Assembly: GCF_988243305.1 (NCBI RefSeq)
Contig: NZ_OZ547136.1
Reading direction: 5' to 3' (one strand)
Length of the DNA stretch: 64,000 nt
Below, one piece after another: positions 8,923 to 14,163 of the stretch. Under the pieces are notes generated by a model. The model was not told where the DNA came from. It saw only the letters and a list, made by a program, of their open reading frames with translations, and did not search any database. The stretch's first letter is position 1; the number at the start of each line of letters is the position of its first letter. The translations under genes and the position numbers were made by a program.

Positions 8923-11900
8923 TTAAAGTGATTTACGGCAGGCGGTCAGTTGGGGGCTGGAATCAGCGTCGCTTCCAGTCATACCCGTTAGCATCTGCAC
9001 ATAGTAGTGCCGATTGTAATCATCAGATTCACTTGTCCAGTAAGCTCCTTGTGTAAATTGCGAATTACTGGAAAACGCTCCAACGTTCCCCCATTCACCA
9101 TACAGTGATCCCTGCGTGCGTTTGTTTTCGCCAGACGTCAAATGTGTGATGCCAGGAAGATTATATCCATCATTTTTAGCATGACAGAGCGCATTGGCAG
9201 CTAGCCAGATATTGGTATGATTTCCATTATTCACCCACCAGCCTTTCAGCTTAATTAAGGTCTGGTAGGTTGTACCTCCTTGTCGGGGAACAGCGCTTAT
9301 TGTGACTGACGTTTGATCGCCGATATTTGCGAAAGAAACCTTACCTGAAGCATCGACCGACACCCAACTCTGTGAACTTGAAAACATATAATCATCAACG
9401 GTTTTACCCGCTTCAAAGTTATCATTGTTGAGTGTGTAATACGCTCCTGCAAAACCTTCGCTCGGGAATTGAGCCGTGGAGAAGGTATGGTTGTTTGCAG
9501 TGACATGACCGGACATTTCTTTTATCGAGCGGATGAGATTCAGCGATACGCTTAAGTTTGCCTGATGAACCCCGTTCAGCATGGGAATGAGAGTCGCTGT
9601 TCCCTCTTTTCCGCCAGTGACAGTCACGGTGTACTCGCCATAATTTCTTTGGCTGTAATCAATATCGCTCAACTTGAGAAAGTTCACGAAGGGACCTGAC
9701 TGGACAAATTCCAGATGATCAGACGTCACTATCGGATTACCGTACTTGTCTTGCAATGTTAGCGTAAGTTTCGCGCTATGCTGGTAGTCAGCCATCAGAG
9801 TGCCAACGTCGGATTTCAATAATGACTTACTTTCATCCGCCGTGCTGGCAAGCAAGGTAATAGCTGCGGATTGGTTGGCTGTACCAGGAACTTGCACATT
9901 GACCGTTAAGGTTTCTGCCAATGTACTGGTTATTGTCGCCGTGACTTGCCCGGACTGATCGGTACGCGTAGTTGGAATATTAACTACCGGGCGACCTTTG
10001 GTGTCTAAGGCGTAACGAACATCGACACCTTCAACCGGGAATCCGTAATCATCTTCTACTCGTGACGTGACGGTGCTGCTATCGATGCCGTCGGCGGTTA
10101 TGGTGTCAGGAGAAGCCACGACGCTCACAACATGTGCCGTTTTAGCATCTGCCTTAACCGCAACCGTTACCTGGCTCTGAACGGGAACATCTTTGCCCAT
10201 TGTGGCCGTAACGGTATAGACATTCACTTTGTCACTGGTCAGCGTTACTTTGGCCTGACCATACTGGTCAGTAAGGACTTCCCCTGTATTGCTTAGCGTT
10301 GCACCTTCAGGCGTTACGCTAAAGGTGATAATTTGCCCAGGCATTAATTCATCCCGAGCATTTCTCACCGTTGCGGTCAGCGTAATACCTTCACTGTTAT
10401 GGACCGTGGTTTCTGGCTTCGATGATGTTAACTCGAGCTTGCCATTTGCCACATTCACGTCAACCTTACTACTACTGTTATTGTCCAGCGTTGCCGTCAC
10501 CTGATAAACCCCTGGCTGGGTGCTAATAAGGTTAACGTACGCGTAACCGTTATTATCGGTGTAAGCCGTATCGCCTATCGTAATGTGAGCTGTTGGCTGC
10601 GCACTTAATCTGACGCGTTGACCCGCTATTACATTGTTAAACGCGTCCTGGACGAGTATCCGTAGTGTGATGTTTTCGCCAACCGTTATCGTTTTTTCGG
10701 CTCCGGTTATACTTATTACCTTCGCCGAACTTTCATCCGGCAGCACTGATAAACTAAACGTTTTATTATCGGAGGGTTGCGCTTTCCGGCTCACCACGAC
10801 GTTATGTTGTCCGGCAATATTGCTGGTCATTGTTACCGTCGCCTGACCCAGCGTATTGGTGGTGACTTCTGTTCCACTTAGAGTGACATCGTTACTCTGG
10901 AAAGTGACCAGCTGGTCTTTAAGCGGATTTTGGTAAGCGTCCAGGATCGTTGCAGTCAGGGTACTCCCCGTACTGTTACCCGCAACAATGGTATTTAATG
11001 AGGCAGTCAGCGGCTGGAGCTGCGCGCTGTTTGTATCCCCAATAAAAGTGACTTGCTGATGAGCAACGGTATTATTTCTGGTCAGCGTCGCCGTAACTGT
11101 AAACTCACCCGCTTTTGTGCCACGCAATGTGACCACGGCATCGCCGTTTGCATCGGTGCGGGCGGTTTCACTACTTAGCGTGAAGTTCCCGGTCATAGAG
11201 GCTGGCAAGGTAAATTTCACATCCTCATCCGGCAACGGGTGTCCATAAACATCTTTCACACTGGCTGTCAGGATAACGGTATTTGTATTGTTAGCGATCG
11301 CACTGCCTGACCCGGCATTTAAGGTCATTACCGATTGTTCCCTGTTTGGGACCACGGTGATCGTGACCGACTGGTGAATATTTTTATCCGCCTCAAGCGA
11401 GGCATCGACGGAATAGCTACCAGCTTTTGAACTGGTCAGGTGCACTCGCACAATACCGGACTGGTCTGTTGTGGCGGACGTGTTGTCCAGTTGCGAGCCA
11501 CCAGGTGCCACAAAATTCACTTTCATATCTTTTAACGGGTTGTTATGAAAGTCTGTGACGGTGGCGGTCAGAGTACTGCCCTGGCTGTTGCCAGCAATAA
11601 TGGTATCTGGATCGGCAACCAGTTGTTTGAATTTTGGCGTACTCGAATCGCTAACGAATTTCGCAATTATCCGTTGTGAGAAACCATTTGGCAGCGTGGC
11701 ACTAATCGTATTTTCTTCCGCAACCTGACTTACCATGTTGATTGTGGCAACACCATATGCATCCGTATTTTGCTGCGGCGGTTCGACAAATTCAGCGCTT
11801 CCTTTTTCATTCTTAAAGGTGACCTGATGATTTGTCAGGGGATTATCACTCTCATCAGTGACGTTGATAGTGAGGGTATTAAATGTCTTTTTATCGGCGT

Positions 11901-14163: not shown

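Follow-up and report, generated by a model that had tools for sequence, protein, structure and literature searches.

Results

The iatD locus

The DNA analysed here (the window) is a stretch of 64,000 nucleotides from contig NZ_OZ547136.1 of RefSeq assembly GCF_988243305.1. Between kptA (8218-8802, plus strand) and yjiJ (14374-15552, minus strand) it contains an uninterrupted open reading frame (ORF) of 1746 codons, which is located on the minus strand and runs from an ATG at position 14163 to a stop codon at 8923-8925 (Table 1). The exact 1746-aa protein is found in public databases on 112 contigs under the name "inverse autotransporter IatD", and RefSeq genomes carrying the gene have the label iatD on the same interval between kptA and yjiJ. 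In a comparison with IatD from Escherichia coli SMS-3-5, i.e. EcSMS35_4876, for which Goh et al. (mSphere 2019, PMC6714894) give a gene length of 5241 bp, 1715 of the 1746 residues are identical (98%), with no gaps and the same total length, and SMS-3-5 shares the gene order kptA-iatD-yjiJ with the window. The same order is found in NY1601, O157:H7 Z866, Sakai and GN03139. BL21 lacks iatD and exhibits a K-12-like arrangement at this site, in agreement with a preliminary description of the window, which had located the gene between kptA and yjiJ and regarded it as missing from K-12-type genomes. The orthology to the characterised SMS-3-5 protein is established by our analysis and nothing contradicts the identification as IatD, the very member of the IatA-D family, named beforehand among the candidates for the closest relative, that matches at 98% identity. 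Taken together, we are highly confident that the ORF represents an intact iatD allele, encoding the type Ve-secreted adhesin IatD of E. coli.

Table 1 Features of the iatD locus in the window
Feature	Position	Strand	Basis
iatD coding sequence, intact	8923..14163	-	ORF list and translation; same interval annotated as iatD in RefSeq
Signal peptide, aa 1-45	14029..14163	-	Sequence inspection and hydropathy profile
Poly-C tract (C7), in frame, codons 60-62	13979..13985	-	Sequence; C8 allele leads to frameshift (O157:H7)
LysM-like segment, predicted periplasmic, aa 68-117	13813..13962	-	Below-threshold Pfam match; YeeJ likeness
β-barrel translocator, aa 185-430	12874..13611	-	PF11924; 4E1T/4E1S matches
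D00-like first post-barrel module, aa 431-544	12532..12873	-	81% identical to YeeJ segment
Stalk, 10 Big_1/Invasin_D3-type Ig-like units, aa 545-1541	9541..12531	-	Pfam and iterative self-profile search
Tip superdomain, aa 1544-1746	8926..9534	-	Sequence/profile matches and AlphaFold2 model
yjiJ-iatD intergenic region, 210 bp	14164..14373	-	Sequence, composition (41% GC around), promoter scan
Perfect 10-bp hairpin: AAGGATACCC, 8-nt loop, GGGTATCCTT	8880..8907	.	Read from sequence

Membrane anchor

Inspection and hydropathy analysis of the N-terminus reveal a Sec signal peptide, as is found in inverse autotransporters, with a basic n-region of 26 residues ending in K-I-R-R and a hydrophobic core of 19 residues, LTAGVCLFTQIFFPVMATA. 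An A-T-A motif precedes Q46, and cleavage is predicted directly before this residue. Classical autotransporters may carry an ESPR ("extended signal peptide region"), and an ESPR-type signal peptide was rejected, as neither the whole protein nor aa 1-158 gave a Pfam match; of the extended signal peptide that had been proposed, the long n-region is confirmed, but not the ESPR. The poly-C tract lies between signal peptide and LysM-like segment. Alleles with C7, C8 and C9 occur, although long-read assemblies are prone to errors in homopolymer length, and the C8 tract is present on two different flanking backgrounds. The LysM match stays below the Pfam threshold (15 bits vs a cut-off of 20.9, E 0.025), and aa 68-117 are 90% identical to the LysM domain of YeeJ, the deletion of which abolishes peptidoglycan pull-down (PMC5595812). 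By analogy, the LysM segment of IatD may bind peptidoglycan.

The barrel is of the 12-strand type and is recognised by the Pfam model IAT_beta (PF11924) at aa 148-423 with E 5.8e-109 (364 bits vs a cut-off of 22.3). Moreover, it matches two crystallised barrels over their full length, that of invasin (4E1T) with E 9.9e-82 and that of intimin (4E1S) with E 2.5e-67. All Ig-like modules are C-terminal to the barrel, i.e. the barrel precedes the passenger, as in other inverse autotransporters. The first of them, the D00-like module, has no Pfam match, and we therefore deduce its Ig-like nature from the place it takes in the family.

Ig-like stalk

Within the passenger Pfam identifies eight Big_1 and nine Invasin_D3 stretches, i.e. 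the Ig-like domains of inverse autotransporter passengers, and a weak match to Invasin_D4. The self-profile search resolves 10 Big-like units in aa 545-1541, of which one (aa 651-722) is weak. Together with the D00-like and the D4-like module this amounts to about 12 Ig-like modules, so that the "at least 12" Big repeats counted previously hold only if these two modules are included, the Big-like units themselves numbering 10. The stalk units have diverged, with a protein sequence identity of 23% on average and 41% at most; on the DNA level no two units exceed 49% identity, and the longest exact shared word has 11 nt. Tandem Repeats Finder detects no tandem repeats in iatD, and direct repeats are limited to 16-25-mers at chance level. 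Highly repetitive Big-domain DNA, as suspected in the preliminary description, is therefore not present. The length variation that such DNA could have driven is not seen either: all full-length copies in the sampled genomes have 5241 or 5242 bp, and Goh et al. likewise found no variation in repeat number (PMC6714894).

Tip superdomain

The tip consists of an Ig module resembling invasin D4, followed by a C-type-lectin-like module resembling D5. It contains C1660 and C1742, the only cysteines of the mature protein, which are nearly invariant across 34 homologues. Although Pfam yields no match to the lectin-like tip, it can be aligned with invasin (1CWV) with E 1.9e-12 using the single sequence and 1.7e-32 using a profile, and with the C-terminus of intimin at E ~1e-4. 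A single-sequence AlphaFold2 model of aa 1432-1746 had a pLDDT of 31 and was discarded in favour of a run with a 34-sequence alignment, in which the tip reached a pLDDT of 96.5. With this model Foldseek retrieves invasin 1CWV as best match among solved structures (TMq 0.82), then intimin 1F00 (0.67) and then C-type-lectin-like domains. In the model the last Ig module is thus capped by a C-type-lectin-like domain, as in other inverse autotransporters. These matches, together with those in Pfam, support the overall assignment made before, i.e. an inverse autotransporter of the intimin/invasin family with LysM-like segment, barrel, Ig-like stalk and C-type-lectin-like tip.

As a word-indexed protein search with the tip returned two fragments only, an exhaustive HMMER search was used instead, which at E ≤ 0.001 yielded 275 representatives. 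No other protein cluster exceeds ~50% identity in its tip, which makes a distinct ligand plausible. A canonical sugar-binding C-type lectin is unsupported: the motifs EPN, QPD and WND, involved in Ca2+/carbohydrate binding, are all missing from the tip, and the domain is compact as in invasin. "Lectin" thus names the fold and not a demonstrated sugar binding.

Flanking regions

A GGAAGG sequence (14169-14174) is located 5 nt upstream of the iatD start codon, and weak σ70-like hexamers can be found at 14359-14330 in the intergenic region. However, scanning the locus for promoters and terminators gave no more sites than shuffled sequence; hence no promoter is demonstrated and we make no regulatory claim. 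The scan places no terminator-like site between yjiJ and iatD, so that read-through from yjiJ is possible. The perfect hairpin sits between the convergent genes kptA and iatD, and we take it to be, probably, a bidirectional terminator; a palindrome at ~8830-8855 is presumably a REP element.

Distribution and inactivated alleles

Of the 5426 complete E. coli genomes, 638 (~12%, about one in eight) have a place that covers iatD to at least 80%, leaving ~88% without the gene. iatD is part of an alternative haplotype of 10.5 kb (8770-19250), which also contains an espX6-like gene and alleles of yjiJ and yjiK that are 19% diverged. For a gene that belongs to such a haplotype with diverged flanking alleles the term "inserted", used before, is an oversimplification. 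A scan with one genome per species, in which iatD carried by some strains of other Escherichia species could be missed, revealed no orthologue of IatD beyond E. coli, but paralogues with 30-50% identity only, i.e. YeeJ, FdeC-like proteins and other inverse autotransporters. One N-terminal fragment with 81% identity lies on a 5-kb contig labelled as Bacillota MAG and is probably a contamination.

In O157:H7 iatD is frameshifted, with C8 in place of C7 in the poly-C tract and a stop at codon 67. The exact O157-type C8 72-mer occurs in 284 complete genomes; the text of Goh et al. 2019 (PMC6714894) does not contain this frameshift. In strain GN03139 iatD is interrupted by an IS3 element. Non-O157 genomes, those of O55:H7, O145:H28 and the type strain of E. 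coli among them, have an unframeshifted tract region or a 5241-bp gene.

Discussion

Our analysis establishes the domain anatomy of IatD and the fold of its tip. Its path to the cell surface can be outlined from what is known of the family. The long N-terminal signal peptide would direct IatD through Sec, whereas the LysM segment would remain periplasmic and bind peptidoglycan, possibly as a dimer. The barrel (aa ~185-430) would insert into the outer membrane and the C-terminal passenger would thread outward through it, where about 12 Ig-like modules would form a rod that presents a rigid D4-D5 superdomain of the invasin type, the last module of which is compact, C-type-lectin-like and stapled by a disulfide. 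As in invasin and intimin, the tip of IatD may be the ligand-binding module. Once on the surface IatD may promote attachment and biofilm formation. For IatD from SMS-3-5, in which a signal peptide, LysM, barrel, Big1 repeats and a C-type lectin cap have been predicted, Goh et al. cloned the gene and demonstrated surface localisation by immunofluorescence and the formation of biofilms in microtitre plates as well as flow chambers, the latter phenotype only when over-expression was driven by IPTG in a flu mutant of K-12, and they observed neither autoaggregation nor binding to extracellular-matrix proteins (PMC6714894).

One may ask whether the ORF, instead of being iatD, represents yeeJ or iatC as a copy or in variant form. 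LysM, barrel and D00 are close to YeeJ (90%, 88% and 81% identical, respectively), yeeJ cross-matches nucleotides 199-1994 of the gene at ~77%, and the best NCBIfam model is that of the IatC N-terminus (NF040978, an N-terminal equivalog domain). Yet its 1129 bits are far under the cut-off of 2400, stalk and tip are only 40-51% and 46% identical to YeeJ, and YeeJ has 2340-2367 aa and is encoded at another locus. As the window protein is 98% identical to IatD over its full length and the gene order of the IatD locus is conserved, this reading is refuted and its remaining probability is negligible. A second question is whether IatD acts like Yersinia invasin, i.e. whether its tip binds β1 integrins and triggers uptake by host cells. 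Invasin is the best match of the tip in both sequence and structure, and a Cys pair equivalent to the D5 disulfide of invasin is kept. However, tip and invasin share only 24% identity, and a GY.LP loop is three residues longer in IatD-type tips. In invasin Asp911 is important in the integrin-binding loop of D5, which is not clearly kept in IatD. The residue aligned with it in IatD is an Asn with an Asp adjacent (CHAKND vs CQGSD in invasin), although this alignment is ambiguous and the loop lengths differ. Moreover, IatD failed to bind extracellular-matrix proteins (PMC6714894) and for YeeJ, its closest paralogue, adhesion to eukaryotic cells was not observed (PMC5595812). We thus consider an invasin-like function very improbable.

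Since iatD is inactivated in other lineages, it might also be a silent or decaying relic that is intact here, but is not expressed and does not contribute to any phenotype. This would fit the O157:H7 copy with its early stop, an allele type shared by 284 complete genomes, the IS3 interruption in GN03139, the lack of a convincing promoter in our scan, and the fact that the related genes yeeJ and iatB are barely expressed in the laboratory (PMC6714894, PMC5595812). On the other hand, the 5.2-kb ORF is intact in the window, O55:H7, O145:H28 and the type strain have an unframeshifted tract region or the 5241-bp gene, and the SMS-3-5 protein is functional once expressed (PMC6714894). Moreover, IatD proteins from different strains are >98% identical in amino acid sequence (PMC6714894), which argues for purifying selection. 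A relic is therefore unlikely, while still deserving some weight. Less probable still, and in our opinion doubtful, is the idea that the poly-C tract serves as slipped-strand ON/OFF switch, O157:H7 being OFF (C8), and that the 10.5-kb block represents an old haplotype maintained within the species as presence/absence polymorphism. We prefer an intact adhesin gene the native expression of which is probably low or conditional, as with other inverse autotransporters of E. coli.

Although correct, the finding is ordinary, as iatD, the gene for a surface adhesin, has been named and studied experimentally and is carried at this site by roughly every eighth strain of E. coli. Gene, architecture, locus, prevalence and a first phenotype were all published in 2019, and the NCBI annotation pipeline already uses the name iatD. 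A search of the literature on iatD and its locus tags yielded only Goh et al. 2019 and a comparative-genomics table on O157 from 2007, in which ECs5290 is listed as "putative invasin" within S-loop288. The novelty implied in the preliminary description can thus not be upheld, and the result has little weight as a discovery. The same description had held that an already named inverse autotransporter at this site in most E. coli would speak against it; the gene is indeed named, but it is found in ~12% of the complete genomes and not in most.

Among the known systems intimin (Eae) from EPEC/EHEC has LysM, barrel, a stalk of Ig modules and a C-type-lectin-like tip in the order in which IatD has the corresponding segments, with a barrel match at E 2.5e-67 (4E1S) and a tip TMq of 0.62-0.67 (1F00, 2ZQK). 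In contrast, the tips are only 16-18% identical and the stalk of IatD is much longer. An assignment as intimin was rejected, the NCBIfam equivalog NF033627 scoring 363.8 bits vs a cut-off of 1400; the site is not the locus of enterocyte effacement (LEE), and no gene for the partner Tir is located near iatD. Invasin from Yersinia pseudotuberculosis resembles IatD in the barrel (4E1T, E 9.9e-82), the disulfide pair of the tip and the D4-D5 fold, onto which the tip model can be superimposed with a TMq of 0.82 and an rmsd of 2.7 Å (1CWV). It lacks, however, a LysM domain and has five extracellular domains, whereas IatD of the window has about 13. YeeJ from E. coli K-12 has the same architecture and a nearly identical membrane anchor, but it is ~600 aa longer, has more Big_1 units and is encoded at a different chromosomal locus; its over-expression also results in biofilm formation (Martinez-Gil et al. 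2017, PMC5595812). IatD from SMS-3-5 differs from the window protein by 31 amino-acid substitutions, with residues 60-61, encoded by the poly-C codons of the window allele, being AP in the window and PS in SMS-3-5, but agrees with it in length (1746 aa; 5241 bp including the stop codon), in the gene order kptA-iatD-yjiJ and in all predicted domains.

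Identity and chromosomal context of iatD

The gene is, by its sequence, iatD: the SMS-3-5 locus has the same gene order as the window, and the two IatD proteins are identical at 1715 of 1746 positions without gaps. In a megablast search, 638 of 5426 complete E. coli genomes had the gene, at 95-99% identity, every listed row bearing the label 'iatD: inverse autotransporter IatD' and a position between kptA and yjiJ; in the remaining genomes, which lack iatD, kptA adjoins yjiJ. The exact protein is found in public databases under the name IatD on 112 contigs. Neither the NCBIfam model of IatC (1129 bits, cut-off 2400) nor that of intimin (364 bits, cut-off 1400) reached its cut-off. 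Since IatD has been described before, the finding is not new. The preliminary description had weighed whether this might be an ordinary, named inverse autotransporter of most E. coli; it is named, but confined to the minority of genomes counted here.

The window is 96-100% homologous to BL21 as far as ~8769, i.e. ~30 nt short of the end of kptA, so that KptA, 184 aa long in BL21, has 194 aa here. The segments beyond this break are listed in the table below.

Features of the iatD region, with the comparison to BL21
Feature	Position	Strand	Remarks
kptA	8218-8802	plus	
kptA-iatD intergenic region	8803-8922		
REP-like palindrome	~8830-8855		absent from BL21
Hairpin	8880-8907		perfect, 10 bp, 8-nt loop; absent from BL21
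iatD	8923-14163	minus	ATG 14163, stop 8923-8925
Poly-C tract	13979-13985	minus	C7, iatD codons 60-62
yjiJ	14374-15552	minus	
First segment	8770-14395		no BL21 counterpart
yjiJ and yjiK segment	14396-16456		only 80.8% identical to BL21 alleles
Second segment	16457-19250		no BL21 counterpart
Pentapeptide-repeat gene	16722-18884	minus	720 aa; within second segment, absent from BL21
Downstream DNA	from 19251		normal BL21 identity (96.6%)

The pentapeptide-repeat gene is annotated in O157:H7 as EspX6 (T3SS effector-like), and the espX6-like segment occurs in 637 complete genomes, a count almost equal to that of iatD. Based on this co-occurrence and the comparison with BL21, iatD belongs to an alternative haplotype of 10.5 kb (8770-19250), which takes the place of 2.2 kb in the BL21/K-12-type arrangement. 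Thus, the position between kptA and yjiJ stands, but the insertion initially proposed is not a clean one. In strain Sakai the region has been named 'S-loop288' (PMC2323221). The espX6-like gene is far more variable among strains than iatD (80-100% vs 95-99% identity), and the DNA neighbouring the haplotype is 96-99% identical to BL21, unlike the iatD-linked yjiJ/yjiK alleles. In SMS-3-5 a ~20-kb block between iraD and hypT (7155-27332 of the retrieved locus), containing ptsP-dhaLK, the glyoxylate genes gcl and hyi, dhaR, ibeA and nhaC, is absent from both the window and BL21, which shows this part of the chromosome to be a hot spot for strain-specific DNA.

yjiJ and iatD are transcribed in the same direction across a 210 bp gap, in which no terminator-like site was found and promoter-like hexamers are weak. 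kptA and iatD are convergent, and the hairpin between them could serve as terminator of both genes.

Domain architecture of IatD

The ORF list and translation give an unbroken frame of 1746 codons, its ATG being the first possible start downstream of the preceding stop, with GGAAGG 5 nt upstream. The GC content equals that of the window (49.1% vs 49.7%). According to sequence and hydropathy, IatD begins with a predicted long signal peptide, made up of an n-region of 26 polar/basic residues, a hydrophobic core of 19 residues and an A-T-A motif preceding Q46; the extended type proposed earlier is upheld in length, but no ESPR was matched by Pfam in the whole protein or in aa 1-158.

The assignment to the intimin/invasin family was correct, as IatD combines a barrel, a Big/Invasin_D3 stalk and an invasin-like tip. 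The beta-barrel translocator is matched by Pfam at aa 148-423 (E 5.8e-109), and among solved structures aa 185-430 cover the entire crystallised barrels of both invasin (4E1T, E 9.9e-82) and intimin (4E1S, E 2.5e-67). Pfam reports 8 Big_1 stretches, 9 Invasin_D3 stretches and, at aa 1557-1624, a borderline match to Invasin_D4; an iterative self-profile search delineates ten Big-like units (aa 545-1541), nine strong and one weak (aa 651-722). The predicted Ig-like modules thus number about 12, the figure of at least 12 Big repeats being reached only if the post-barrel module (aa 431-544) and the D4-like module are counted.

The view that highly repetitive Big-domain DNA could drive recombinational length variation is not supported. 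Tandem Repeats Finder reported no tandem repeats in iatD, direct repeats are chance 16-25-mers only, and the ten units share on average 23% (maximum 41%) protein identity, at most 49% DNA identity and no exact word longer than 11 nt. Full-length copies measure 5241 or 5242 bp across all sampled genomes.

No Pfam lectin model matches IatD, but invasin D3-D5 (1CWV) aligns with its last 315 residues (E 1.9e-12). An exhaustive HMMER search with the tip (aa 1544-1746) retrieved 275 cluster representatives (E <= 0.001), in most of which the module forms the C-terminal end; outside IatD, the nearest clusters share only 46-51% identity. When 34 of these hits were turned into a profile, invasin D4-D5 was matched with E 1.7e-32 and the C-terminus of intimin with ~1e-4, and the same alignment yielded an AlphaFold2 model (pLDDT 96.5, pTM 0.90) for which Foldseek found invasin 1CWV (TMq 0.82, rmsd 2.7 A), intimin 1F00, 3NCX and 2ZQK (TMq 0.62-0.67) and, for its second half, the C-type-lectin-like domains of snake-venom proteins, CLEC9A and CLEC12A. 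The C-type-lectin-like tip is thus borne out as a fold. C1660 and C1742, the only cysteines of mature IatD, are nearly invariant across the family. The first of them, C1660, falls on the cysteine of the invasin CQGSD loop in the alignment, and the pair is the counterpart of the invasin D5 disulfide. EPN, QPD and WND motifs are missing from the tip, which is lectin-like only in fold.

Intactness of iatD across strains

iatD is intact in the window, but not in all strains. In O157:H7 the poly-C tract is C8, causing a frameshift with a stop at codon 67 (RefSeq label 'frameshifted'), and the exact O157-type 72-mer occurs in 284 genomes, i.e. ~45% of the iatD-positive complete genomes. This leaves a potentially intact iatD in roughly 6% of genomes, consistent with Goh et al. 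In bloodstream isolate GN03139 (3230-4459 of the retrieved locus) a frameshifted gene for an IS3-family transposase interrupts iatD. O157:H7 Z866 has a neighbouring kptA that is likewise annotated as frameshifted (6899-7494 of the Z866 locus). The 5-kb contig JAEWTL010000009.1, labelled 'MAG: Bacillota bacterium', ends in sequence 81% identical to IatD aa 1-511; as the inverse autotransporter is enterobacterial and the bin Bacillota, contamination during binning seems likely.

C7, C8 and C9 alleles are all seen. The 71-nt form of the tract region is present in O55:H7 CB9615 and ATCC 43889, the latter with C7 confirmed by alignment and iatD annotated as intact; two strains carry C9, and one C8 strain has the window's A, not the O157 C, at the SNP directly after the tract, so that C8 occurs on two flanking backgrounds. 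The rare alleles are known from single assemblies and may be homopolymer sequencing or assembly errors. A switch function of the tract, set in an old presence/absence haplotype, is quite improbable; C8 is nearly uniform in O157:H7, which favours a fixed frameshift there over a switch state.

Comparison with known inverse autotransporters

Goh et al. (2019, PMC6714894) defined iatD as EcSMS35_4876 (5241 bp), highly conserved (>98% identity) at a fixed chromosomal position. Among 126 genomes 6% had a complete copy, and PCR detected the gene in 10% of the ECOR strain collection. Their domain prediction comprised LysM, Big1 repeats and a C-type lectin cap; they found no evidence for repeat-number variation and do not mention the poly-C tract or frameshift. 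Cloned IatD was seen at the cell surface by immunofluorescence and, over-expressed in a K-12 flu mutant, produced biofilm in plates and flow chambers, with no autoaggregation or binding of extracellular-matrix proteins (PMC6714894).

The loop equivalent to that of invasin Asp911 differs in IatD in length and sequence. The closest characterised paralogue is YeeJ, whose barrel is 88% identical to that of IatD, its stalk 40-51% and its tip 46%. The proposed LysM motif scores only 15 bits in Pfam, under the cut-off of 20.9, but aa 68-117 show 90% identity to the YeeJ LysM, whose deletion abolished peptidoglycan pull-down (PMC5595812).
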